A stretch of 64,000 bases of DNA from assembly GCA_937901525.1 (NCBI GenBank), contig CALDHX010000013.1, positions 1,515 through 65,514 on the forward strand, read 5' to 3'. Each line of letters begins with the position of its first letter. The stretch's first letter is position 1. The translations under genes were made by a program, and so were the position numbers. This document shows, piece by piece, positions 1,944 through 62,240 of this stretch. Origin of the DNA: an uncultured Bacteroidales bacterium (GTDB taxonomy: Bacteria; Bacteroidota; Bacteroidia; Bacteroidales; P3). The notes under the pieces are model-generated. The model was not told the DNA's origin. It did no database searches and saw only the letters and a program-made list of their open reading frames with translations.

Positions 1944-1990
1944 CAAAAAAAAATGAATCGCCAAAATTTTTCAAAGAAAAAACAAAATAA

Positions 1991-2041
1991 ATCAAAGAAA
2001 AAAAGGATTTTTTCAATGAAAAAATCCTTTTTTTCTTTGAT
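1991..2041. terminator. Perfect 51-nt palindrome (25-bp arms), likely terminator of CDS 2061..3812
   Basis: atcaaagaaaaaaaggattttttca-a-tgaaaaaatcctttttttctttgat, checked base by base. It lies 20 nt downstream of the stop of the upstream minus-strand gene and has T-rich flanks on both strands. Confidence 0.6.
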
Positions 2042-2060
2042 TTTTTAAACTATATCTTTA

Positions 2061-3812
2061 TTATCTATTTACAGATATTTTCTTTGATGTGATACCTGAG
2101 TTAGATATTATCTTAACAAAGTAAGCTCCGTTGCTAAGGTTTGAAGTATTTATTTCAAATTTATTGTTTCCTGTTGCCAATGAAACTTCTCCTAATGAAA
2201 TCACTTCTCTTCCTAACATATCTACAACAGAAATATTAGCGTGAGTTGATTCTAACATAGAGATTTCAAGATTTAACATATCATTAACAGGGTTTGGATA
2301 AGCCAATGTTTGAAGTATTGCTCCTTCTGCTTGTTCTAATCCTACTAATGAAAGTATCTTAATATCAACTGCTTTGTAATCATCATAAGAAGAACCTGTT
2401 CCGTTTACTAATCTTGTTTCTGAACCATCGTAGATTTTGTATGTTGTACCACCATCTCCATATGAGTCAAATATTTCAAATACATAGCAACCAGTTTCAG
2501 TTAATGGAACTTCTACTGTATCTCTTACAACTACTTGTTGCGGATAGTAATCTGCTTCTTCTAATACATTACCATTTCCATCAGAAAGTTTCCAACTGCA
2601 TTCGTAAGCATATTGGTCTGTTTTTATGATAATTTTAAGTTTATCTCCGTTTCCTTCTTTTGGAGCGTCTTTCTTAATTGTTGCAGTCTTTTGTGCATCT
2701 TCAATAGGTGTACCATTTATTGAAACAACTTTTGCAAATACGTTTGTATTTTGACCAACATTTACTGCTACATCAGGTAATTCAACGAATACTTCTTGAT
2801 CTGATGTAATGCTTCCTGTCCAATCAAAAGTTTGTTCTGCTGTTACTGCTGATCCGTAAGCAATTTGCATATTTGTTATTGTACTTGCTCCATAGTTGTA
2901 AACTTTTAAAGCAAGAGAAGCTAAATCGTTACAACCATTTTGACCTTGTGCAGACATTGTTGTTGACATAGCTGCAAGTTCTGGAAGATTTGTAACTGTA
3001 GGTTTGCATTCTGAACCTGTATAGATTTCTTGTTGATCTCTTGCAACAAAGACTACTAATTTTAAGTGTCCAAGTTTTACTAATTCATTGCTGATTGAGC
3101 CAGGAATATTGTAAGTATATGTTCTTTGAATCAAAGTTCCAGCAGGAATAACATTTGATCCTTCTGGTGCAGTGATGTCATCACCCCATTGACCTGTTAA
3201 CATATCTCTCAACATATTCATGTGAATATATTGACCATCAGCTGTAACTTGTGAAGGGTTTGCACTTGCTCCTGATTGTGGTCCAATAATTGAGTCTTGT
3301 AATAAAACAACGTTTAATTTGTTTGAAGCAGTTGCTGCATCTGCTGTGTAATATGCCTCAACGTTTACTGTCATAACTCTTGTTGTTGCATCAATGCTTG
3401 CTTGTGCTGCAACGTTTACGAAAGATGCTTCTGCAAGAATTTGATTTCCACGAGATACAAATTCTCCTCTATTTAATATTGTTGCACCTCCTGAAAATGA
3501 GTGTCTATTTACTGTTCCAGCAGGGAATCCTTGCAATCCTGTTTGATTCATTATTGCTGTTCCCCATTGAGTTTGGTACATTGCTGCATAACTTCCTGTA
3601 TGTATGTTTATACCGAATACTCTTCCTGGATTGTCTTCTTCGTATTCTTTTACGATTCTGTGTCCGTCTGGACAATATCCACAATTTATACCTGTGAATT
3701 CTTCAAGAATAACATTTTTGTTAGCGGCTTCTGTTGATACAAACTGAGGAGTTTGTGCAGATACTGCAAAAGCTGCAAATAATCCTAAAAATGATAATAC
3801 AATTTTCTTCAT
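2061..3812 (-). CDS. Omp28-related thioredoxin-like (CxxC) surface protein with T9SS C-terminal sorting domain
   Basis: Signal peptide MKKIVLSFLGLFAAFAVSAQ. N-terminal EEFTGINCGYCPDGH motif typical of Omp28-related proteins. C-terminus LAYPNPVNDMLNLEI...GAYFVKIISNSGITSKKISVNR matches the T9SS type A CTD pattern. Confidence 0.75.
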   Translation of the reverse strand: MKKIVLSFLGLFAAFAVSAQTPQFVSTEAANKNVILEEFTGINCGYCPDGHRIVKEYEEDNPGRVFGINIHTGSYAAMYQTQWGTAIMNQTGLQGFPAGTVNRHSFSGGATILNRGEFVSRGNQILAEASFVNVAAQASIDATTRVMTVNVEAYYTADAATASNKLNVVLLQDSIIGPQSGASANPSQVTADGQYIHMNMLRDMLTGQWGDDITAPEGSNVIPAGTLIQRTYTYNIPGSISNELVKLGHLKLVVFVARDQQEIYTGSECKPTVTNLPELAAMSTTMSAQGQNGCNDLASLALKVYNYGASTITNMQIAYGSAVTAEQTFDWTGSITSDQEVFVELPDVAVNVGQNTNVFAKVVSINGTPIEDAQKTATIKKDAPKEGNGDKLKIIIKTDQYAYECSWKLSDGNGNVLEEADYYPQQVVVRDTVEVPLTETGCYVFEIFDSYGDGGTTYKIYDGSETRLVNGTGSSYDDYKAVDIKILSLVGLEQAEGAILQTLAYPNPVNDMLNLEISMLESTHANISVVDMLGREVISLGEVSLATGNNKFEINTSNLSNGAYFVKIISNSGITSKKISVNR

Positions 3813-13766: not shown

Positions 13767-14027
13767 TTATTTCATTAATATAACTAACAAACAAACTACA
13801 TTAGCGAATAAAGCAACAGCTTCAACCAATGCGGCTGCAATAATCATATTGGAACGAATATCACCTGTTGCCTCAGGTTGACGAGCAATGGCGTCCATAC
13901 CATTACGTCCAATATTTCCAATACCTATACCTGCTCCAACAGCAGCTATACCTGCTCCGATACCTGCTAAACCATAACCGATTGTAGCATTGCTAACAGC
14001 TTCTAATAATAATGCTAAAGTTGTCAT
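13767..14027 (-). CDS. atpE: F-type ATP synthase subunit c
   Basis: 86-aa two-helix hairpin with glycine-rich helix 1 (GAGIAAVGAGIGIG), the ARQPE loop and a carboxylate in helix 2 (ALVEAVALF). Confidence 0.92.
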   Translation of the reverse strand: MTTLALLLEAVSNATIGYGLAGIGAGIAAVGAGIGIGNIGRNGMDAIARQPEATGDIRSNMIIAAALVEAVALFANVVCLLVILMK

Positions 14028-14370: not shown

Positions 14371-15564
14371 ATGGAAATCAAAAATCAAATCAAACAAAAA
14401 GCACAACAACACTTCAGTAGTGTTGTTGCTATTCGTAGACACTTGCATCAAAATCCAGAACTTTCCAAGCAAGAAAAAGAGACGTCAAAGTATATTTGTT
14501 CAATCCTTGATACTATTGATGGAGTAGAATATCAATCTAACATAGGTGGATATGGAATATTTGGTTTTATAAAAGGGAGAAAACCAAATAAAAAAACAAT
14601 AGCATTAAGAGCAGACATAGATGCTTTACCAATAAAAGAAAGCACAAATCTTCCTTTTGCCTCTCTTAAAGAAGGTGTAATGCATGCTTGTGGTCATGAT
14701 GCTCATACTGCGATATTATTAGGTGCGATCAAAATTCTATCAGAATTAAGAGAAGAATTTGACGGACAAGTAATGTTTATCTTTCAACCATCAGAAGAAC
14801 ACTATCCAGGAGGTGCGATAACAATGTTAAATGATGGCATATTCAACAACATTACACCAAAAGCAATATTTGCACTTCACACAACGCCAGAAATAGAACG
14901 AGGAAAAATTGGAATAAAAGAAGGAAAATATATGGCTTCCACAGATGAGATATATATAGAAGTAAGAGGAAAAGGTGGACACGGAGCAACACCTGATTTA
15001 AATATAGATCCAATAGTAGCAGCCTCACATATCGTAATAGCCTTACAAACCTTAGTAAGCCGAAATGCGAATCCAACACTTCCTACCACATTTTCAGTAG
15101 GCACTTTCTTGGCAGAAGGTCGCACAAACATCATTCCATCAAAAGTATATTTAGAATGTATAATTCGCACCTTTGATAACGATTGGAGAAAACAAGCACA
15201 TAAATTAATACATAGAATAAGCGAAGAAACAGCACAAGCCTTTGGTGCGACAGCAGATGTTTTTATTGACCACGGCTATCCTTATTTATACAATAATCCA
15301 ACACTAACAAAAGCAACTCGCAATTTAGCACAAGAATATCTCGGTGAAGAAAACGTATTAGATATAGACATGAGAATGACAGCCGAAGATTTTGCTTATT
15401 TTGCTCAAAAAATTCCAGCATGTTATTTTAGACTTGGCACAAAAAAAGAAGGCTGTGAAATAACCAATCTACATACATCTAATTTTGATATAGATGAAAA
15501 TAGTATGCAAGACGCTATAGGATTGATGACTTATTTAGCAATAAAAAACCTTAACGCAGATTAA
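14371..15564 (+). CDS. M20D-family amidohydrolase (N-acyl-amino-acid amidohydrolase / hippurate hydrolase-like)
   Basis: RRHLHQNPELS, the metal site MHACGHDAHTA, and about 397 aa, typical of the family. Confidence 0.85.
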   Translation: MEIKNQIKQKAQQHFSSVVAIRRHLHQNPELSKQEKETSKYICSILDTIDGVEYQSNIGGYGIFGFIKGRKPNKKTIALRADIDALPIKESTNLPFASLKEGVMHACGHDAHTAILLGAIKILSELREEFDGQVMFIFQPSEEHYPGGAITMLNDGIFNNITPKAIFALHTTPEIERGKIGIKEGKYMASTDEIYIEVRGKGGHGATPDLNIDPIVAASHIVIALQTLVSRNANPTLPTTFSVGTFLAEGRTNIIPSKVYLECIIRTFDNDWRKQAHKLIHRISEETAQAFGATADVFIDHGYPYLYNNPTLTKATRNLAQEYLGEENVLDIDMRMTAEDFAYFAQKIPACYFRLGTKKEGCEITNLHTSNFDIDENSMQDAIGLMTYLAIKNLNAD

Positions 15565-15590
15565 ATATTTCAAAAAAATAATCACCTATT

Positions 15591-19191: not shown

Positions 19192-20661
19192 TCATCGTAA
19201 CTGCAATAAATAAAGCTCTCTTTTCAATCCCAAGGATTCAAATTTTAATAACAAACTATCTTTTTTGTATTCCTTAAAATCTATTTCGCAAGTGTTTAAA
19301 AGGCTTGAACGAGACAAAGGAGTCTCTGCTCCAATAACATCTGTAATTATTTTTTTTGATTTTATTTCTTCTTTATTATATTTGTGAGCATAAATTACCT
19401 TTGGCATATTTTCCTTAGAATACTTATAAAGATAAAGATTCTCTGAGGCAGGTTTATCAAGCAAAACAAAAGTTGCATCGGGGTGAGTTTTCATCATTTC
19501 AACTATTTCTTCATTGCAAGAAAACTTACAAAACTTTTGAGGAATTAGTGCAAAACAAGTATTCCACAAAAGAAAAGCCAATCCAATGAAAAGCATAGCT
19601 TTGTGATTTGCAAAATAGTGAGTATAAAGCATAATAAGAATAAAAGGAATCATTATCATAAATTCTGCATTCCCATTAGAAAAAGCTGCAAAAAGAAATG
19701 ATAGAGCAAGAATTAACCAAAGAATTTTGACAAATTTTTTCTCATTATAAAGCGAAAGAGTGTGTTTTTTATTCTTTACAAAGTTTACGATTCCAAAAAC
19801 AAAGAAAAAAACAAAAAAAACAAAGAAAAAAACAAAAAAAGTAAAGAAAAAATTTAAAAAAACAAAGATATTTCCGTGCACTTGTAAGAACGTGCGAATC
19901 AGGCTAATAGAAGAGAGCAATAATACTTGTTTTAAATCGGGAGATTGAGCATAACCTTGAATGTAATCGTGAAGAACAAACGAGAAAAGAGCATTTAAAC
20001 TCAATTGATTAGTCTCAACAAAACAACAAATTGCGTAAACTATCGGTATTATTAAACTTATAAGAATGAAATACAAAACATATTTTCCTCTTTTGTTTAG
20101 CAACAAAGCTATAAACAAAGACAGATAGACTAAAATACTAAGTTGATGAGACAAACAAGCAATTACTATCGATAAAGACATTTTTATTAAACGTAAAATC
20201 GTATTTTCAGCAAGAAAGACTTGTAAGTAATAGATTGAAAGCATAGAAAAAAACAACGGAAGTATGTATGCTTCATTGTCAGTTGCAAATCGCATAAATC
20301 CAAAACAAGCCCCACAAAACACTATTGCAGAAAAAATAAAGTTTTCATTACGATTCACTCTCTTGATTATTCGCCTCAGCACAAGTAAAGTACCACAAGC
20401 CATTAGTGCGTTAAAGGTTTGAAAAATTGTTATCGGTTCAATATTTGTAAAAGCAAAGAGAGAGTAAATCAAACGACACACCCAGCAATATAAAAGATGA
20501 TGAGGACGTAATAACTCTTCGCCATGCAAAGATGAATAGGCATAAGAATAAGAATCGGACGTAGGGTTGTTTGACAAAAAAAAGATGTACAAAACCGCAA
20601 AGCCTACTACTGCCAAGTAAGAATAATTATATTTTAATTTGTTAAAGATTCGCAACTTCAT
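19192..20661 (-). CDS. Polytopic membrane protein, function unknown (GT-C-like topology is only a guess)
   Basis: 489 aa with many hydrophobic helices. Contains an in-frame 5 x 21-nt repeat encoding heptads rich in Phe and Val. Confidence 0.65.
   Translation of the reverse strand: MKLRIFNKLKYNYSYLAVVGFAVLYIFFLSNNPTSDSYSYAYSSLHGEELLRPHHLLYCWVCRLIYSLFAFTNIEPITIFQTFNALMACGTLLVLRRIIKRVNRNENFIFSAIVFCGACFGFMRFATDNEAYILPLFFSMLSIYYLQVFLAENTILRLIKMSLSIVIACLSHQLSILVYLSLFIALLLNKRGKYVLYFILISLIIPIVYAICCFVETNQLSLNALFSFVLHDYIQGYAQSPDLKQVLLLSSISLIRTFLQVHGNIFVFLNFFFTFFVFFFVFFVFFFVFGIVNFVKNKKHTLSLYNEKKFVKILWLILALSFLFAAFSNGNAEFMIMIPFILIMLYTHYFANHKAMLFIGLAFLLWNTCFALIPQKFCKFSCNEEIVEMMKTHPDATFVLLDKPASENLYLYKYSKENMPKVIYAHKYNKEEIKSKKIITDVIGAETPLSRSSLLNTCEIDFKEYKKDSLLLKFESLGLKRELYLLQLR
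19779..19883 (-). repeat. Five 21-nt-phased CAAAG-cored units inside the CDS
   Basis: c/t of (C/T)AAAG at 19779, 19800, 19821, 19842 and 19863, with exact 21-nt spacing. Two central units are near identical (caaagaaaaaaacaaaaaaaa / caaagaaaaaaacaaaaaaag). Confidence 0.85.
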
Positions 20662-29455: not shown

Positions 29456-32400
29456 CTATTTTTTCTGTGTTTTATTCTCTAAACTATAAAAATACTTATT
29501 CACCTTTTCTTTATAAAAAGGAGAATACATAGGTTGCATTTGCTTAAATATTTCCTCCTCCTTATCTTTCAATCCTTTGAAATCTAAAAAATCTTTTACT
29601 TCCGTATTTATTTTATCTTTTCCTTCTTTGGATTCTCTCTTTTTACCTTTTCCTTGTTTTTTTTCTGCCCTTTCGTGTTCAAGTAATCGAGTTAATATTT
29701 TTGCTTGACGATTAATCGTACTGCGACTTATTTTTTTATTTACGATTTCTTTTTCTGTTTGTTCCATTTGTTTGGAAATTTCATTAAGAAGTTTTGAGGG
29801 TTTACCTTGCTCCGCTTTTATTCTTTCTGCCTCTTTTTGCAACAACCTTCTTATCATCTCTTGTTGTGCAGCAGCTCGAGCTAATGATTCATTTAATTTT
29901 GAATTTTCGCCTATTTTCTTCCTGCCTTGCTGTTGTCCTTGTTCTAAATCTTTTTTTAATCGCTCTAATTCTCGATTCAAACTTTCTTGTAAATCTTTTA
30001 AACTTTGTTGAGATTGTTTTTTTTGTTGAGAAGATGAAGACGGATTATTACATTGTTGAGAAGAATTACTTTTGCTATTATTACTCTGTTGTTGATTCTG
30101 CATGTTTTCTAAACTTTCTCTCAACATTAAAGACAAATTATTCATTGATGACATTGCATATTGTTGCCACGAGAGTACAGAGTTATTTTTATAATTTGAA
30201 TAATGTGCTTGATTATATTGTAATAAAGTTGAAATTGATTTTTCTACATAGTCTACTATTTTATTCAATTCTTGATTTATCAAATAACCTATTTGAGTTT
30301 GTCGTTTACTTATTGCAAACAACGTATCTGAAATAGGTTGCATTTTTTCTTTCAAATGATATTGTTTTTTTATTATTTCTTGATACAACGGGTCTGAAAC
30401 TCTTGTCGTTCTTATATTATTCATTAAATCCTCTTGACCTTTTGATATTTTAATGAGATTTTTAAGGATTTGTCTGATATGTTCTATATCTTCCCCTAAT
30501 TGATTTGACAGATTAGTCTGACTTTGTTGCTTTATATTGTTTGACATCTGCTGCATTTGTTCAGAAGCTGACCTCATATTCTCGCTTGCTTTCTTAAATT
30601 TGTTTTGATTTAACTTTTCTTCTGCTTCTTTTTGATTTTTTTTAATTGAATTTTCTAATTGTTTATCTCTTTCAATAGACTTATAATCATCAATTTCTTT
30701 AGAAAGTTTTTCAATTTTTTTTAACTTTTCTAATTGTTCAGAAAATTCCTTTGAAATATCATTTTGTTTCTTTGAATTATTTTCTTTTTCCTTTGAATTA
30801 TTTTGTTCAGATAAAGATTTTTGTTTTTGAGATAATTCATCTAATTTATCAGTCAATTCATTTGTTAATTTTTCTAACTCTAAACGTTTATATATTTCTA
30901 TATTTTTATCCAGTTCCTTAGAGAGATTCTCGTTATTCATTTTAATATTATTTAGACTCTCATTAAGTTTATTCTTATCTATATTTTCCTCTGCAAGTTT
31001 CTTGATTTCTTCAAGAATTTCCTTCATTTGTTCATCTAATACTTTTTCAAACAATTCTTCTAACTCTCTTTGTTTTTTTAAAATATTTTCTTCTTGCTGA
31101 GTCAATTTCTCATCTAAATAATTATTCTCTTCTATTTGTTGTTTTATATCTTCTATTTGTTGTTTTATATCTTCTTGTTTTTTTATTAACTCTTCTATTT
31201 CTTGTTTATCTTGCCAAGATAGTTCTTTCTTGCCTATAAATTCTTTACTTAATTCATTAATTTTATTTTTTAATTCTTTAATAGAAGTCAAAACTTCTTC
31301 TGTTGTATTTTTTATATTTTTTGAATTAGTTTCTTTTTTCAATTCCAATTCTTCTTGCGTTGGAACATTCAACAAAAACACCTCACTTCTTATTGATTTT
31401 CCTCCAGTTATTGCATCATTATCTTTAACTTCAAAATAATATTCTACCTTATCACCTTGTTGTAGCAAAAGATCTGATAAATTATAGTAAAATTCTTGCG
31501 CATTTTCTTGTTTATTAATCTCTATTAAGTACGATTTACATATAGTATCATTCTTATTTATTTGATTTAAACAAAATTTTAATTCAGAAAATCCATAATC
31601 ATCTTTTATCTGTCCTCTAAATAATATTCTATCTGGCAAAATAGTATCTTTATATTCAACAACTACTATTTGAGGATATAAATCCTCTATAACTTTTAGT
31701 TGAACTCTTAACGTATCTGAATAATTCGAAAATCGATTTGTTGTTTTTATATAAAATTCCTCATCATTTATGAGAGTATGCGAATAAAAAAATTCACTTT
31801 TTTTGTTAGGTATAAACATTTTTTTTTCACTATCGTTTATAAACAGTATATTTTCCACATCACGAACCAACCCTTCCCAAATTATTTTTGATCCCTTAGG
31901 CACACAAACATCATTCAAAGAAGTAATAATCATAGGTTTCAATTTCGTATATACAGGAGGTATTGCCCTTACTCTAAGATTTACAATTATCGGTTTCGGA
32001 TAAACTGTTATCAAGTAACTCTTACTACTATATCCATTCGCATTAAAACTAATAATTGTATTTTTCTGTAATTGTGAAATCTTATATGAAAATGTAGTTT
32101 TGGTATTTTTCTTCATTTGAAACTCATTTTCTCCAACCTTAATGTAAACAACATCTGGCAAAGCCTTTCCCTTCATTTTTACTTCCACTACAAAATCTTC
32201 TTGTTGTAATATCTCCAAAGAAGAATTTTGTAATTCAAATATAAAAGGAGCTGGCTTTTCAAAATATTGAGTATGATTTATATACCTATAAGTACTTTGT
32301 TTCAAGAAGTCTGGAAAACAAACAATAATTACCAATAACACGACAACAACGGAAAGAGATATAAAACCTATTTTTTTTGTTTTTTTCTTATCTATTGCTT

Positions 32401-33893: not shown

Positions 33894-33915
33894 TAATATT
33901 ACTTTTTTGGAGAGG

Positions 33916-33923
33916 CAAATTTA
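33916..33923 (-). promoter_or_regulatory. -7 box TAAATTTG (minus strand) for atpB
   Basis: caaattta on the plus strand, 23 nt upstream of the ATG at 33893. Confidence 0.5.
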
Positions 33924-34051
33924 GTAAATAATTTTTGGAATGCAAGTATTTACTAAAATTTTTCTAACAATTAATTTCTAATTTCTATATTTTTTACTTT
34001 CCCCTTCTTATTTTTTCTCCACTTTATAGCTTTGTTATAAGTTTCTTTTCT

Positions 34052-42489: not shown

Positions 42490-42886
42490 GGGCCTGGGTT
42501 GGTTTTGACAGCAAGGCAAATGATTAAGTAAGCATGCAGGCTAAGGTAACACAAGCCTCAACCAGAGTTACAAAACAATAATTGGCGAAAATAACTACGC
42601 TCTTGCAGCTTAGTCGAAGTATAGTAGACTACATTTGCGAATCGGTGTAAAGTACATCGAGCAAGACATCTCTCCAAGACCTTTTTTCCGTGGTTAAGGA
42701 CTAAGAGGTGCTAGCAAAACGGAAATAACCTTAATGGAGCTTTGACATTAGGGTGAAAATTTAAAAGATAAGGTTAAAGCAGGGTGTTTGTCCCTTAGCT
42801 TTTTCACGAAAATGAAGGACAAAATAAGCATGTAGAAAGCTTAGTTGTTTCTTGTTTGGACCAGAGTTCGAATCTCTGCAGGTCCA
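42490..42886 (+). ncRNA. ssrA: tmRNA (SsrA), tag reading frame 42584-42613 encoding GENNYALAA-stop
   Basis: 5' GGGCCTG pairs with 3' CAGGTCC-A, including the G3:U70 alanine identity pair. Also GGTTTTGACAGC near the 5' end, a T-arm-like GGACCAGAGTTCGAATCTCTG, and the in-frame ggc gaa aat aac tac gct ctt gca gct tag. Confidence 0.92.
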
Positions 42887-42900
42887 CTCTTTAAAACAAA

Positions 42901-42951
42901 AAAATATCTCTTAGGTTTGGTAAATCCTTCCTAAGAGATATTTTGTTTTTT
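42901..42951. terminator. Terminator after ssrA, bidirectional with the convergent OMP gene
   Basis: 15-bp arms aaaatatctcttagg / cctaagagatatttt with a 14-nt loop, followed by GTTTTTT. Confidence 0.75.
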
Positions 42952-42986
42952 CTTTGTTTTATTTTAAATATCTTTCTTCTCTTTCT

Positions 42987-43691
42987 TTAAAAGAATATAG
43001 ATACTCCGAACATAAGGCGATTTATTCCTTCATCAAAGCTATTAGAGAAATCATGACCAATAACTGAATGAACATATTTGTAATTTGTATTTCCTAATAA
43101 AGGCAAGAAATAAGATACATTTAATTGAAATCTATGTTTTGCTTTAATTTCTATTCCTGCTCTTAGTGCAAAATCAAGTGTTAATGGATTTTCAAAACTT
43201 AAATATTCTGTGTTAGAAATAACTGTATTGTATTCTGGAAGAGGTGTTTCAATGTGATATAGTTCTTTTTCTTTTGTTAAGTAGAATGAGGCATTTGCTC
43301 CTGCTGCTGCAAGAAAATTAACGTTTTGTGTGATAGGCAATCTATAATTTACAAGTATAGGAAGACTTAATGTATGAATAGAGTAATTGTCTTCTATACT
43401 TGATATTGGGTTATTAATAGTTAATAAATGATTTGTATATCCTGGCTCTGCGGTTAATGAAAAGGTATTCTTCTTGTTTAACATGTATTCGTATTTGAAT
43501 GCAATATCAAATGCAACTGCACTTTTCAAATCGGTAACACCACGATCTATTACTTCAACATAGTCTTTTCCCATTGGAAAACTTCCAAAATCTAAGCTAA
43601 GACCGAAATTGTGTTTTTTCAAATCTTCTTGTTGTGCAAACATTGTGCAACACAACATAATTCCTACAAGTGTTAAAAATGTCTTTTTCAT
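42987..43691 (-). CDS. Small outer-membrane beta-barrel (porin-family) protein
   Basis: Signal peptide, alternating hydrophobic beta-strand pattern, C-terminal ...FGVSIFF, 234 aa. Confidence 0.7.
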   Translation of the reverse strand: MKKTFLTLVGIMLCCTMFAQQEDLKKHNFGLSLDFGSFPMGKDYVEVIDRGVTDLKSAVAFDIAFKYEYMLNKKNTFSLTAEPGYTNHLLTINNPISSIEDNYSIHTLSLPILVNYRLPITQNVNFLAAAGANASFYLTKEKELYHIETPLPEYNTVISNTEYLSFENPLTLDFALRAGIEIKAKHRFQLNVSYFLPLLGNTNYKYVHSVIGHDFSNSFDEGINRLMFGVSIFF

Positions 43692-43935
43692 ACTTTTATT
43701 TTTAAAAAATTAATAATTCATGTCAAATTCTATCGTTCTACTATTATTGCATTTTACTTTTGTTTTATAATTTGTTTCTTCACATGCCACAAATGGCAAC
43801 ATAAGCATTAAATGCTAAACGTTTTACTATTCTTTTTATTGTTATTTTCAAGATTCTTTAAAAGAGTTACAGAAATAAGTCCAAGTAAATCAAGAAAATA
43901 GAATTACGAAAAAAAGTCTTTGTTTTTTTCTTTTT

Positions 43936-43977
43936 TTTCTTTGATTTTTTTAATTTTTTCTTTGATTTTTTTTGAAA
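43936..43977. repeat. Two 21-nt-phased TTTCTTTGA units, bracketed by a 13-bp inverted repeat (43909-43921 / 43982-43994)
   Basis: c of CTTTGA at 43939 and 43960. The inverted repeat is aaaaaaagtcttt / aaagacttttttt. Confidence 0.8.
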
Positions 43978-44014
43978 AAGTAAAGACTTTTTTTTGAGCT
44001 TTCTTTACTTTATT

Positions 44015-44338
44015 TTAATGAACCATTTTTAAGCCAATAATTGACGCAATAAGTGTAAAGGTAAACAAAAGTCTAAGAAAAGAAGCCGGCTCTTTGAAGA
44101 TAAAAATCCCTATTAACACTGCTCCAACTGCTCCTATTCCCGTCCAAACAGGGTAAGCCGTTCCGATAGGTATTGTTTTTGTTGCCTTAGTTAGAAGAAT
44201 CATACTCAGAATATAAAACATCACAAATGCTGCATACCATAAAGTTGCTTTATTTCCCGAAGCGAGATTGCCTTTTCCAAGACAAAAGGTGAAAAATGTT
44301 TCACACAAACCTGCTAAAATCAAGATTACCCAATTCAT
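44015..44338 (-). CDS. sugE: SMR-family small multidrug/quaternary-ammonium efflux protein (SugE-like)
   Basis: 107-aa four-TM protein with the essential Glu in TM1 (LAGLCETFFTF). Start set at MNWVILI because a -7 box (TATTTTTG, 44373-44380) lies inside the track ORF extension. Confidence 0.85.
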   Translation of the reverse strand: MNWVILILAGLCETFFTFCLGKGNLASGNKATLWYAAFVMFYILSMILLTKATKTIPIGTAYPVWTGIGAVGAVLIGIFIFKEPASFLRLLFTFTLIASIIGLKMVH

Positions 44339-51466: not shown

Positions 51467-51506
51467 GTGATTATTTTTCACTTAACGCTGAATGAGATTT
51501 TTTTTT

Positions 51507-51590
51507 CAAAGAAAAAATGAAATTTTTCTTTGAAAAAATAAAAAAAAGCAAAGAAAAAATTTCAAAAATCAAAGAAAAAAAATTGAAGAA
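51507..51590. repeat. 21-nt-phased CAAAGAAAAA units (51507, 51549, 51570), with an inverted copy at the intervening slot (51528-51532)
   Basis: Spacings are 42 and 21 nt. tttcaaagaaaaa / tttttctttgaaa form a 13-bp inverted repeat. A/T tracts occur about every 10-11 nt. Confidence 0.8.
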
Positions 51591-51593
51591 AAC

Positions 51594-51624
51594 AAAAAAA
51601 AGAGACAATCACTTGTCTCTTTTT
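51594..51624 (-). terminator. Rho-independent terminator of the T9SS-cargo operon
   Basis: agagacaa-tcac-ttgtctct stem-loop, followed on the minus strand by T8, 20 nt downstream of the stop at 51645. Confidence 0.75.
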
Positions 51625-55440: not shown

Positions 55441-56412
55441 TTAATTATTTCTTTTTACTAATATTTCTACTAATTGTTCTAATATTTCTCTGTATTGACT
55501 TTCTGGCAAATTAGATAAAACTTCTTTTGCTTTATTGCTATAATATTTTACCTGCTCCTCTGTCTTTTCAATGCTGCCTGACTTTGATATATCTAAGACT
55601 AATTTTAATACATCTTCATCAGACTTGTCTTTTTGTTTGACAAAATTTATTACATTTAGTTTAACCTCTTCGTTTAGTGTATCTATATAATCTAAGATTG
55701 GTAAGGTGAATTTGCATTCCTTTATATCATTTCCATATTTCTTTCCACTGACTTGACTTATCTCAAAATCTAAAATATCATCTTTGATTTGAAATGCTCT
55801 TCCTAATAATCTGCCAAATTCTTCTGCGTATTTAGTATAGTCTTTATCTGTTGTAGCAGTTTTTGCTCCAATATAAGCCGATGCTCCTAATAAAGAAGAT
55901 GTTTTATAGTCTATTACGCTAAAATATGCCTCACGAGAAATATCTCCTTTCTCTAAAACGTCTTTTTGCAACAATTCTCCCATTGGCAATTCTCTTGCTA
56001 TTTTGGAATAAATTGGCAAAAGCTCAAAATCTTCCTTTGTATGAATTAATTGTAAAGACTTACCAAAAAGATAATCTCCATACAATATTGCAGCATTATT
56101 TCCCCAACGTGAATTGATTGTAGGTTGATTTCTTCTTAAATCACTATTATCTAACACATCATCGTGAGCTAATGATGCGGTATGCAGTAATTCTACAATT
56201 ATTGCAGAACGATAAGTAGAATCGCTAAGACCTCCACAGGCCTTTGCTACTAATAACGTAAGAAGTGGGCGTATTTTTTTACTTTTTTGAGAAAGAGAAT
56301 AGGATAATATATCAGAAAGCATTCCTACATCGCTTGTTTTGCATTCCTGATACATCACTTCAAAAGTGTTTAGCTCGTTTTCTATCGTTTTTGCTATGTC
56401 TTTTATATCCAT
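55441..56412 (-). CDS. ispB: Long-chain polyprenyl diphosphate synthase
   Basis: First DDxxD motif LAHDDVLDNSDLRRN and second FQIKDDILDF, 323 aa. Confidence 0.9.
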   Translation of the reverse strand: MDIKDIAKTIENELNTFEVMYQECKTSDVGMLSDILSYSLSQKSKKIRPLLTLLVAKACGGLSDSTYRSAIIVELLHTASLAHDDVLDNSDLRRNQPTINSRWGNNAAILYGDYLFGKSLQLIHTKEDFELLPIYSKIARELPMGELLQKDVLEKGDISREAYFSVIDYKTSSLLGASAYIGAKTATTDKDYTKYAEEFGRLLGRAFQIKDDILDFEISQVSGKKYGNDIKECKFTLPILDYIDTLNEEVKLNVINFVKQKDKSDEDVLKLVLDISKSGSIEKTEEQVKYYSNKAKEVLSNLPESQYREILEQLVEILVKRNN

Positions 56413-56441
56413 TCCCTTGAAAAACTAAACGTTTTAACGTG

Positions 56442-56449
56442 CAAATATA
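56442..56449 (-). promoter_or_regulatory. -7 box TATATTTG (minus strand) for ispB
   Basis: caaatata on the plus strand, 30 nt upstream of the ATG at 56412. Confidence 0.5.
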
Positions 56450-56474
56450 CAAAAAATATAGAAAACCAATAATT

Positions 56475-56558
56475 TTTCTTCGTTTTAGGAAATTATTTCT
56501 TTGTTTTGAAAAAATATTTCTTTGAATTATTTTATTTTTTCTTTGAATTATTTTTAAT
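56475..56558 (+). repeat. Four exactly 21-nt-phased TTTCTT(T/C)G units
   Basis: Units are tttcttcgttttaggaaatta / tttctttgttttgaaaaaata / tttctttgaattattttattt / tttctttgaattatttttaat, with the c of the core at 56478, 56499, 56520 and 56541. Confidence 0.9.
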
Positions 56559-56562
56559 TTTG
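56555..56562 (+). promoter_or_regulatory. -7 box TAATTTTG for the ubiA-like/rSAM/comEC operon
   Basis: Exact TAnnTTTG 28 nt upstream of ATG 56590. It lies inside the TTG-initiated 5' extension of track ORF 56506. Confidence 0.55.
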
Positions 56563-56589: not shown

Positions 56590-57606
56590 ATGAAAAGTTT
56601 AAAGATTTGGTTACAAAATGCAAGAATGGTTTCATTAGCTCAAAGTTTGCTTCCTGCAATTTTAGCTGTAATTATAGCAATCAATGAGCAAGATTTCAAT
56701 ATTTTTCTTGCAATATTAGCAGTATTAGGTGTTGTTTCAGCACATTTAGGCATGAATTTAGCTGATGATTTTTTTGATTATAAAGTCAATACCGCAGAAA
56801 GCAGAAAAGAACTCTCTCGTCAAGGTTTTAGAGCAAGGATTGTAAAATATCCTTATCTTACATCTAATCAGGCAACTCTTGGTGATTTAAAACGAGCTAT
56901 TATTCTTTTTCTTCTTTTTGCAACAATAATGGGAGGAATTATTTTAGCTCTACGTTTTAATTGGTTGATAGTTCTAATTGCTTTCCTAACTTTATTCTTA
57001 GGAATCTCTTATTCTGGATTTCCTTTTAAGTTTTCATATATAGGATTAGGCGAATTGGTTATCGGAATCATTTTTGGGCCACTTTTAATGATGGGAGTAT
57101 ATATCGCAAGTGCTAATAGATTGGACACTTCTGTTGTTTTAGCCTCTATTCCCGTTGGTTTGTTGGTGGTAAATATTCTTTTTACACATAGTTTCATTGA
57201 TCAAAAAGCAGATGAAAGTGCAGATAAAATGACTTTTGCTCGATTGCTAAAAACAAATAAGGCAAATTTAACTGCAAGCATATTATTTAATTTCATACCT
57301 TATTTAATTATTGTCGCAGGTGTTATATTGAAATATTTACATCCTCTTTATCTTTTAATTTTCCTTGTTTTGCCAAGAAGCATTTGGTTAATAAAAAGTT
57401 TGATTGAGTTTACTAAATCAAACAATACAACTCTTGCAAAACCGCCTAAATATATGGGTAACATGGGAGATTGGGAAAAATTCCAAACAGCAGGAATTGA
57501 TTGGTTTATGGCTCGTTGGCTTGCAGCGAGAAACATACTTTCGTTATTTTGTATAGTAATAATTATAGTTAATATCATATTATGGTTAAGCAAATGTTTT
57601 ATTTAG
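56590..57606 (+). CDS. UbiA-superfamily prenyltransferase, MenA-like
   Basis: N-terminus IWLQNARMVSLAQSLLPAIL, first Asp-rich motif NLADDFFDY, second DQKADESADK, about 9 TM helices. Start moved to ATG 56590. Confidence 0.8.
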   Translation: MKSLKIWLQNARMVSLAQSLLPAILAVIIAINEQDFNIFLAILAVLGVVSAHLGMNLADDFFDYKVNTAESRKELSRQGFRARIVKYPYLTSNQATLGDLKRAIILFLLFATIMGGIILALRFNWLIVLIAFLTLFLGISYSGFPFKFSYIGLGELVIGIIFGPLLMMGVYIASANRLDTSVVLASIPVGLLVVNILFTHSFIDQKADESADKMTFARLLKTNKANLTASILFNFIPYLIIVAGVILKYLHPLYLLIFLVLPRSIWLIKSLIEFTKSNNTTLAKPPKYMGNMGDWEKFQTAGIDWFMARWLAARNILSLFCIVIIIVNIILWLSKCFI

Positions 57607-61419: not shown

Positions 61420-62079
61420 ATGAACATATCAGATTTATGCAAGAAAATAGCAGAAAAATCTTCTTTGCTTGATAATATTTTGAATAACACAAAGGATTCT
61501 TTCTTCCTTTTCAAAGAAACTGCACAAGAAATAATAAAACAAATGCAAAAAGACTCTCCTGAGACTAAATTTGTATTTCAAAACAAATCAGAATTAGAAT
61601 TTGAAATTCGTTTTGGCGAAGACATTCTAATCTTTACTATGCATACAAATATTTTTGAATTTTCTCGACAACACGAAGTAATGAAATTGCCTTACGTAAC
61701 GCAAGACAAAGAACGCTCTTTTTGTGGAATGATAAATATTTACAACTTTCTATCAGATTCTTTTGACTACGATAGAGATTATGATATAGGATATTTAATA
61801 GGAAGAGTATTCATAAATAAGGAAAATCACTACTTCATAGAAGGCAAAAGAGAAGTTGGTTTATTATACTCAAATTTTAACACATCTGTCATAAATAAGG
61901 ACTCTGTTAGTAGCATAATACTCTCTTCAATGGAATATGCTAACAATTTTGACCTATTAGTTCCGCCTTTTGATGAAGTAAAAACCATAAGCGTTGGCGA
62001 AATGAAGCTAAATTCCTCTGCAAAAAGATTTATTACAGCAAAAAGATTAGGCTTTGAATTTCAGCAAGATAGAGAATAA
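61420..62079 (+). CDS. Hypothetical cytoplasmic protein (219 aa)
   Basis: Clean ORF with no signal peptide and no motif I recognise. Confidence 0.6.
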   Translation: MNISDLCKKIAEKSSLLDNILNNTKDSFFLFKETAQEIIKQMQKDSPETKFVFQNKSELEFEIRFGEDILIFTMHTNIFEFSRQHEVMKLPYVTQDKERSFCGMINIYNFLSDSFDYDRDYDIGYLIGRVFINKENHYFIEGKREVGLLYSNFNTSVINKDSVSSIILSSMEYANNFDLLVPPFDEVKTISVGEMKLNSSAKRFITAKRLGFEFQQDRE

Positions 62080-62113
62080 TCAAGAAAAAAAATGAAAAAA
62101 ATCTTAAAAAAAA

Positions 62114-62144
62114 TTTGGTAGTATAGAATTTTGTTGTAATTTTG
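62114..62144 (+). promoter_or_regulatory. tRNA-Glu/rpsT promoter: -33 TTTG (62114-62117) and -7 TAATTTTG (62137-62144)
   Basis: G-to-G spacing of 27 nt. Preceded by three A7-A8 tracts spaced about 10.5 nt apart (62085-62113). Confidence 0.65.
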
Positions 62145-62165
62145 CATCGTCAAACAAGGCAAGAC

Positions 62166-62240
62166 GCCCCGTTCGTCTAGTTGGCCTAGGACGCAAGATT
62201 TTCATTCTTGAAATCAGGGGTTCGAATCCCCTACGGGGTA
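62166..62240 (+). tRNA. tRNA-Glu (anticodon TTC)
   Basis: GCCCCGT-TC-GTCT-AGTTGGCCTA-GGAC-G-CAAGA-TTTTCAT-TCTTG-AAATC-AGGGG-TTCGAAT-CCCCT-ACGGGGT-A. The 1:72 pair is G-U. Confidence 0.85.

Follow-up and report, generated by a model that had tools for sequence, protein, structure and literature searches.

To our knowledge, few parts of bacterial genomes are as poorly understood as interspersed repeats such as REP/BIME (repetitive extragenic palindromes and bacterial interspersed mosaic elements), and for gut Bacteroidales other than Porphyromonas gingivalis hardly anything has been learned about such repeats. In Proteobacteria, REP/BIME are described as binding sites for nucleoid and topology proteins (PMC2817692, PMC3733652), and the conserved tetranucleotide at the REP end is given as GTAG or CGTC (PMC3733652). 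BrickBuilt of P. gingivalis is a minisatellite MITE (miniature inverted-repeat transposable element) with a 23-nt unit in up to 22.8 copies per element and a conserved leader and tail of up to ~300 nt with terminal inverted repeats (PMC4596501). Here we analyze a repeat array in a 64-kb stretch of the genome of an uncultured Bacteroidales bacterium (contig CALDHX010000013.1 of assembly GCA_937901525.1; the window in what follows), where four 21-nt units occupy the spacer between the divergent genes ispB and ubiA. On a reading whose chances we judge to be evenly balanced, this array is one copy of a lineage-restricted, Ca. Onthomorpha-like intergenic family that comprises docking or insulator arrays and terminator hairpins and has look-alikes in coding sequences (CDSs). 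By analogy, the family would be closest in logic to REP/BIME and also close to BrickBuilt, without the defining features of both.

The unit would be 21 bp long, a CWWWG core (usually T5-7CTTTG) and 16 bp that are almost purely A/T. The logo of 55 distinct units is T-rich at -5 to -1, has the core CTT(T/A)G and TTT at +6 to +8, and otherwise contains A/T richness only. Head-to-tail units form arrays of two to five and flipped units keep the register, as do the CTTTG at 51528 among three CAAAG cores and the CAATG at 2014 between CAAAG and CTTTG. Because of this strict register, the sole C and G of a unit come back on the same face of the DNA after each two turns of the helix. Like REP/BIME, as far as the cited accounts portray them, these elements are short (20-40 bp), extragenic and multi-copy, come singly, clustered or as inverted pairs, are regularly spaced in either orientation, form hairpins near gene 3' ends and have lineage-specific variants. 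Unlike REP/BIME, the units are A/T-rich and only quasi-palindromic, keep a strict 21-bp register, are dominated by direct head-to-tail arrays, have no GTAG or CGTC head in the 55-unit logo, and do not form a stem-loop singly, only inverted neighbours being able to pair. No member of the RAYT (Y1 transposase) Pfam family is present among the genes listed for ~29-64 kb of the window. The resemblance to BrickBuilt lies in the host order, the exclusively intergenic location, imperfect tandem units of about two helical turns that mix conserved and non-conserved positions, dispersed copies and a limited host range; the differences are the 21-nt unit, the two to five copies and the lack of shared flanks. 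When the 250-nt flanks of four window arrays were compared all against all, only matches of 9-18 nt appeared (best E=0.001). Flanks common to the arrays, terminal inverted repeats and target duplications were all lacking, so that a MITE with leader and tail was rejected. A conserved spacer motif (GAAA-N3-TTTC, Lrp/FFRP-like) is not supported either, the logo giving T/A richness only.

The initial annotation had reported the core CTT(T/C)G four times in the ispB/ubiA spacer, and all four lie where it put them, CTTCG at 56478 and CTTTG at 56499, 56520 and 56541, in exact 21-nt steps and with the -7 box TAATTTTG adjoining the last unit. The other sites that it listed are also correct (1972/1993; 30749/30770/30791; 43939/43960; 51507/51549/51570; and 19779/19800/19821/19863, with TAAAG at 19842). 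The list can be extended by four cores, at 43918, 51528 (flipped, in phase), 2014 and 2035; those at 42910/42931/42952 form one more intergenic lattice, the fifth. The existence of the family had been made to depend on a 21-nt spacing peak relative to shuffled sequence; this peak is present, and the family exists. Same-strand pairs of CTTTG or CAAAG at a distance of 21 nt number 10 in the window, with 0.5 expected from local dinucleotide shuffles and none of 200 shuffles reaching 10; at 42 nt there are 8 (0.55 expected). The pattern TTTTTCTTTG-N(1-31)-TTTTTCTTTG has four matches in the window, every one with a gap of 11 nt, and none in 100 shuffles, while Tandem Repeats Finder (score of at least 60) returns a period-21 solution for 9 of the 10 repeats of the window, the sole exception being a period-28 array at 33903.

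A better description of the pattern is a strand-symmetric set of CWWWG cores in A/T-only DNA on a 21-bp lattice. We examined it in the window (~4.9 kb of intergenic DNA, gene calls following a simple open reading frame heuristic) and, within the ~150 kb from relatives that the analysis covered, in eight loci with ~15.2 kb of intergenic DNA that were fetched through protein homology and not through the pattern; single loci are designated below as L129 and so on, and the L136 locus (assembly JAZRIM01) has ~85% nucleotide identity to the window. Intergenic CWWWG pairs at 21 nt number 13 in the window (0.2 expected), with none at 20 or 22 nt, 7 at 42 nt and 2 at 63 nt. In the relatives there are 30 at 21 nt (0.8 expected), three at 20 nt, two at 22 nt, 23 at 42 nt and 12 at 63 nt, and no spacing other than 21, 42 and 63 nt is enriched in the intergenic DNA of either set. 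The five true lattices of the window (1972-2035, 42910-42952, 43918-43960 with an extension to 43981, 51507-51570 and 56478-56541) are all intergenic (Table 1), no off-lattice CWWWG was found inside them, and about one third of the intergenic CWWWG sites belong to lattices. It might be argued that a genome of ~31% G+C, in which T-runs and TTTG are common, would produce such arrays by chance as low-complexity sequence, or that they are assembly artefacts. We regard this as barely credible and reject it, given the shuffles, the presence of the same arrays in independent assemblies from different samples, and the recurrence of the peak in relatives that were chosen by protein homology.

Table 1. 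Positions and strands of the lattices, hairpins, candidate promoter boxes and coding look-alikes of the window
Feature	Position	Strand	Remarks
Four-core lattice, CAAAG 1972 and 1993, CAATG 2014, CTTTG 2035	1962..2045	-	
CDS look-alike, 489-aa GT39/PMT_2-family membrane protein (open reading frame 19192-20661)	19779..19868	-	Transmembrane helix FFTFFVF/FFVFFVF/FFVFGIV
CDS look-alike, 1126-aa coiled-coil (DUF4175-like) protein	30746..30804	-	Heptads NNSKEKE/NNSKKQN/DISKEFS
Hairpin directly 3' of tmRNA (CTTAG 42910, CTAAG 42931) plus direct unit CTTTG 42952	42905..42965	+	Single lattice
Three-unit direct array, CTTTG 43918/43939/43960; lattice runs on to TAAAG 43981	43917..43975	+	
Hairpin 3' of SMR (Multi_Drug_Res) gene, inverted pair TAAAG/CTTTA	43976..44014	-	Fold -7.1 kcal/mol, z=-3.9
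Four-core lattice upstream of MerR-family gene, CAAAG 51507, CTTTG 51528, CAAAG 51549 and 51570 (plus-strand coordinates)	51491..51603	-	
Terminator-like hairpin of Por_Secre_tail gene, directly 5' of the MerR lattice along transcription	51597..51624	-	12 pairs, then T-run; also in relatives
TATATTTG, likely -7 box of ispB	56441..56448	-	Bounds the array on the left; invariant in relatives
Four-unit direct array, ispB/ubiA divergent spacer	56471..56561	+	T-rich strand towards ubiA
TAATTTTG, candidate -7 box of UbiA-family prenyltransferase gene	56555..56562	+	Consensus match; conserved in all relatives

The ispB/ubiA array lies between ispB (polyprenyl synthase, PF00348; start at 56412) and ubiA, whose ATG at 56590 is found 28 nt past TAATTTTG. 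Nine other contigs of the same species from different samples carry an identical spacer array, which argues against an assembly artefact, and no copy-number change was found across the ten sequences, among which the 5' untranslated region differs. The four units are also in exact register in the relatives L129-L133 (86-90% UbiA identity). Across three species the identity of the cores is 0.90-0.97, that of the spacers 0.66-0.77 and that of fourfold sites of the flanking genes 0.64-0.73; no indel was found among these species in the 84 nt of the array, despite its T-runs, and the neighbouring 27 nt of 5' untranslated region are unalignable among them. The spacers of the array drift at the neutral rate while cores and register are kept. 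On the other side of the array, the ispB leader and promoter (56413-56470, cccttgaaaaactaaacgttttaacgtgcaaatatacaaaaaatat, with the palindrome AAACGTTT/AACGTTTTAACGT) is near-invariant between species that are ~30% diverged at fourfold sites, and may be a regulatory site for ispB.

One reading of the arrays is that they bend DNA. Phased T-tracts would curve the helix and stimulate the neighbouring promoter, in the manner of phased A-tract curved DNA and UP elements, with which the arrays share A/T tracts in helical phase upstream of some promoters. There are two T-tracts per 21 bp, and in a wedge model (with parameters from the literature) the ispB/ubiA array, abutting its -7 box, reaches the 99.5th percentile of predicted curvature in the window. 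The first explanation of the initial annotation is weakly supported in this way: only the ispB/ubiA array is extreme, and the remaining ones of the six modelled lie at percentiles 69-96. UP elements need no CWWWG core and are promoter-proximal by definition (~-40 to -60). Here the last core is 14, 33 or 45 nt from the -7 box, and arrays occur between convergent genes with no promoter (L136, L129), so that an UP-element role cannot be general. Curvature would also leave the conserved CWWWG and the concerted changes of its middle bases without explanation, and we consider it a very improbable account of the family. The Bacteroidetes -7 promoter consensus is TAnnTTTG. The cores themselves were rejected as -33 or -7 elements, as TTTCTTTG does not have the conserved A of this consensus and the distance from TTTG to the -7 box is 9, 30 or 40 nt instead of ~19.

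Two of the period-21 segments lie within CDSs. One of the three explanations offered in the initial annotation was a repeat that spreads and is tolerated in CDSs, and it held a match of 56517-56555 to 30767-30805 too good for chance. The match is indeed 36 of 39 positions, and it does exceed what generic A/T-rich 39-mers give (mostly 25-29 of 39 at best). It is not unusual among arrays: 43931 and the minus strand at 51544 also agree at 36 of 39, and other array pairs at 33-35. Since array pairs, with their fixed core, A/T-only spacers and internal duplication, reach 33-36, such a score marks membership of a sequence class and does not demonstrate direct copying. Ectopic conversion between 56517 and 30767 may have taken place. 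In the coiled-coil gene, CTTTG arises on the opposite strand of Ser-Lys codons (tCA AAG). In relatives (T/S/N)K likewise recurs every seven residues at these positions (L259 with one heptad more), and this segment is an ancestral heptad repeat and not a family member. A second period-21 repeat of the same gene (31128-31207, 3.8 copies, consensus TCTTCTATTTGTTGTTTTATA) presumably represents further heptads. In the GT39 protein, homologues down to 42% identity are of equal length with no indel at the array, and close relatives share the FFV heptads. With GT39 homologues ungapped and the coiled-coil heptads ancestral, in-frame insertion of repeats was rejected and the proposed spread into CDSs is not supported.

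The same effect is seen with other sequences. The gene at 13767-14027 (minus strand) encodes an 86-aa ATP synthase c-subunit-like protein with glycine-zipper heptads, and its segment 13925-13973 has a period of 21 in unrelated, G+C-richer sequence (GAGIAAV/GAGIGIG); L222, a match from the JGI metagenomes, is a coiled-coil CDS whose KEKIEKx heptads give the same DNA pattern as the family. The period of 21 nt in CDSs is thus explained by 7-residue periodicity (coiled coils, membrane helices) written in A/T-rich codons, and the two segments of the window appear to be independent look-alikes of the family. Coding DNA at large is mildly enriched in CWWWG pairs, with 12 at 21 nt and 16 at 63 nt in the window (mean 7.3) and 47 and 44 in the relatives (mean 20.8), as would be expected if heptad periodicity were common in proteins encoded with A/T-rich codons.

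When neighbouring intergenic units are inverted they fold into a hairpin with a 16-nt loop. The strongest is a near-perfect 47-nt palindrome at 1993-2039, 3' of the gene 2061-3812 (-30.0 kcal/mol, z=-10.6), in the lattice whose two direct units lie upstream of the gene 472-1911. A look-up of the gene beside this lattice gave no record. The hairpin 3' of the tmRNA gene (42490-42889) spans 42905-42950 (-20.9 kcal/mol, z=-6.4), and L136 and L137 have CTTTG/CAAAG at the matching place. In the SMR hairpin the arms of L136 and L389 are CAAAG/CTTTG, relative to which the change in the window is compensatory. Across genomes the arm pairs CTTTG/CAAAG, CTTAG/CTAAG, CTATG/CATAG and CTTTA/TAAAG are found, and these compensatory changes speak for a role of base pairing. 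From their position, the inverted pairs most likely act as terminators, and the 3' ends of both tmRNA and protein genes would be served by them. In L136 a single lattice of six cores runs through the tmRNA hairpin, an array of two units and the SMR hairpin, all between convergent genes.

A rival reading is that the arrays work at the RNA level, extending intrinsic terminators through U-tracts that serve as back-up termination or pause sites, or as protein-bound U-rich 3' tails. The T-rich strand does follow a hairpin or RNA gene along transcription at 1962, 51500, L062, L022, L136 and L129-17742. For single strands of the direct arrays, however, folding predicts no structure (z -1.1 to -1.7), the ispB/ubiA array sits between two divergent promoters with no gene upstream, L110 and the 43917 array are A-rich along transcription, and it is not obvious what a register set by the helical repeat would mean in RNA; we therefore find an RNA element improbable. 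L110 was also considered as an orthologue of the 43917 array and discarded, there being no tblastx match. Rfam at the gathering threshold returns only the tmRNA and four tRNAs in the window.

Compared between relatives, the family appears to change through gain or loss of whole units and exchange of sequence between copies. Upstream of the MerR-family gene there are four cores in the window and in L133, three in L129 (two of them flipped) and one in L131; the difference between L129 and L131, whose genomes are 95.9% identical over an 18.8-kb alignment, is exactly 42 nt. The spacer after the SMR gene has 3, 3, 2 or no units depending on the relative, one unit being of 22 nt. An array of ~130 nt of the CTTAG type in the atpB/PBP spacer is present in L137 only. 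All these changes in copy number were seen between genomes no more than 96% identical. Core variants tend to be concerted: in each of the two L133 arrays the first three cores are CTTAG and the fourth is CTTTG, and upstream of a tRNA gene the CAAAG of L129 gives way to CATAG in the two units of L131. The unit CTTAGGTTTAGAAAAATATT(T/C) recurs at non-orthologous loci of L133 and L137 (20/21 identical), the array that L181 has in an rsfS/TPR spacer parallels that of ispB/ubiA in each successive unit, and a 98-nt block with the 43917 array matches L130 17732-17828, which is another locus, at 91.8% identity. These concerted variants and shared units require that copies exchanged sequence or that entire arrays descend from a common ancestor. 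An organism-wide shift of specificity from CTTTG to CTTAG was rejected; the variants are mosaic, since the tmRNA hairpin of the window uses CTTAG and L137 carries both types.

These observations bear on the third explanation of the initial annotation, a 21-nt minisatellite that spreads by conversion, of which the intergenic part (the whole-unit difference of 42 nt, the concerted cores) is supported; the arrays are not hypervariable, with no change in copy number in ten same-species sequences. In its strongest form this explanation holds that a purely selfish or neutral minisatellite arose from one 21-bp progenitor, that the arrays are inert and only the hairpins were co-opted as terminators, and that the register is held because slippage, unequal exchange and ectopic conversion all act in whole units. 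It would account for whole-unit indels between near-identical genomes, for arrays present or absent at orthologous spacers, for concerted cores and a shared order of several units at non-orthologous loci (the L133 arrays; L181 and ispB/ubiA), for the occupation of divergent, tandem and convergent spacers alike, and for a relocated outer membrane protein (OMP) cassette flanked by family repeats (see below). It has more difficulty with the constant copy number within the species, with four units in register across three species 27-36% diverged at fourfold sites, with cores far above spacers in conservation and T-runs free of indels, and with the absence of shared flanks, terminal inverted repeats and target duplications. 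We treat it as a serious rival, on the unlikely side of the scale.

The alternative that we prefer for the direct arrays is a lattice on which an abundant DNA-binding or nucleoid protein would dock along one face of the helix, or else a structural insulator between transcription units, with the inverted pairs as terminators. Docking is favoured by the two-turn register, the symmetric core and the conservation of cores but not of spacers. The iteron-like cooperative sites of the initial annotation survive in this form, the cores and register being kept while spacers drift neutrally; the arrays are not at a replicon origin. Taken further, the lattice could trace out in the genome where a DNA-organising protein of Bacteroidales binds that has so far escaped description. 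It would be a symmetric dimer, recognising CWWWG by its C and G and polymerising at intervals of two helical turns. We know of no H-NS-like protein in the phylum, and we put this extension forward as a doubtful proposal. Several findings weigh against a functional lattice. Units of 22-23 nt exist (L383, L129 upstream of a tRNA gene, and 43981 to 44003 in the window). At some loci the arrays are dispensable, with a single unit upstream of the MerR-family gene in L131, no units after the SMR gene in several relatives, and no array in the more distant L134, where synteny is broken and the ubiA -7 box is present. Arrays end at varying distances from the -7 boxes. Finally, conversion between copies, instead of selection, could keep both core conservation and register.

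Other repeat systems are less close. Plasmid and phage iterons are direct repeats of 17-22 bp about two turns apart that are bound cooperatively by Rep initiators. They resemble the present arrays in the two-turn direct repeats facing one side and in combining a constant core with spacers that vary. Iterons are grouped at a single origin beside a rep gene, whereas the cores described here may flip and occupy at least five chromosomal spacers per 64 kb, with ispB, ubiA, a MerR-family gene, tmRNA, SMR and OMP genes as neighbours. The BOX elements of Streptococcus pneumoniae have a 45-nt boxB, and among the cyanobacterial STRR/LTRR repeats STRR have units of 7 nt. Like our family, BOX and STRR/LTRR are intergenic, confined to their lineages and built on a module reiterated in tandem, and what they do is debated; their unit sizes are different, and we know of no helical-repeat lattice reported for BOX or STRR/LTRR. 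The simple repeats of contingency loci vary highly in copy number between strains, whereas no length variants occur in the ten same-species ispB/ubiA sequences.

We also scanned GTDB species genomes, viral contigs and JGI metagenomes, the figures that follow applying among the matches listed. In GTDB, TTTTTCTTTG pairs had a period of 21 in 10 of 16 matches from Bacteroidales, 3 of 16 from other Bacteroidota and 3 of 106 from other taxa, where periods of 15, 18, 27, 30, 33 and 36 were favoured. In the viral contigs the period was 21 in 13 of 143, none with A/T-only spacers. The three-unit pattern in JGI metagenomes had periods (21,21) in 16 of ~230 matches, 15, 18, 27 and 24 being the dominant ones. 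Family-like Bacteroidales arrays came from two metagenome-assembled genomes (MAGs) of Ca. Onthomorpha and two other low-G+C gut MAGs, and among the JGI matches listed only L181 and L257 resemble the intergenic family. As the motif elsewhere prefers other periods, mostly multiples of three, the preference for 21 bp is a property of the lineage and not of the motif. Literature searches on 21-bp Bacteroidales repeats, on the motif itself and on Onthomorpha returned nothing relevant; the family is real and we found no published description of it.

Some neighbouring regions deserve mention. The OMP cassette (a 234-aa beta-barrel protein, hairpin and promoter region; 42898-43760) is 93.7% identical to L130 17834-18707, in genomes only ~88% identical overall. 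The block also involves 43761-43847 and 43908-44005 of the window. In L130 the locus is a different one, after the homologue of window 63361+, and the array block that flanks the cassette there is in circularly permuted order with respect to it. L136 and L389 do not have the cassette, and their tmRNA hairpin, array and SMR hairpin are contiguous. It looks as if the cassette had been moved by recombination between family repeats. The adjacent SMR protein (107 aa; 44015-44338, minus strand) recurs without any sequence difference in 579 blocks of the assembly collection, and its downstream context varies completely between genomes (OMP, AraC, TRCF or AAA_14 gene); for a small gene beside a rearrangement hot spot, its conservation or its sharing between genomes is unusual. 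The tRNA gene 62166-62240 is preceded in relatives by an A-rich array of two units with period 22-23 (L129/L131/L133 ~15480-15590), with cores CAAAG in L129, CATAG in L131 and CAAAG/CTAAG in L133. In the window (62079-62165) these have decayed to CAAGA and CTTAA, an array lost by point mutation. The period-28 array (33903-33963) lies in the divergent spacer of the atpB-like and PBP genes and is an imperfect repeat with two copies of GCAA(A/G)T(A)TTTA(G/C)TAAA(T/A)A, the first of which is conserved in L136, L137 and L259.

For those who annotate A/T-rich genomes there is a caution here: 21-nt periodic repeats in CDSs come from alpha-helical heptads and should be kept apart from non-coding families. 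The intergenic repeats mark recombination joints and supply terminator hairpins, and they matter therefore for the annotation and assembly of abundant animal-gut MAGs. The constraint on them is unusually clear, a two-turn register and a symmetric 5-bp core being kept while 16-bp spacers drift neutrally, and it gives a concrete model of a binding site that is testable on synthetic DNA despite the uncultured host. If the DNA-organising protein were real, it would mark the boundaries of transcription units as an insulator or nucleoid anchor.

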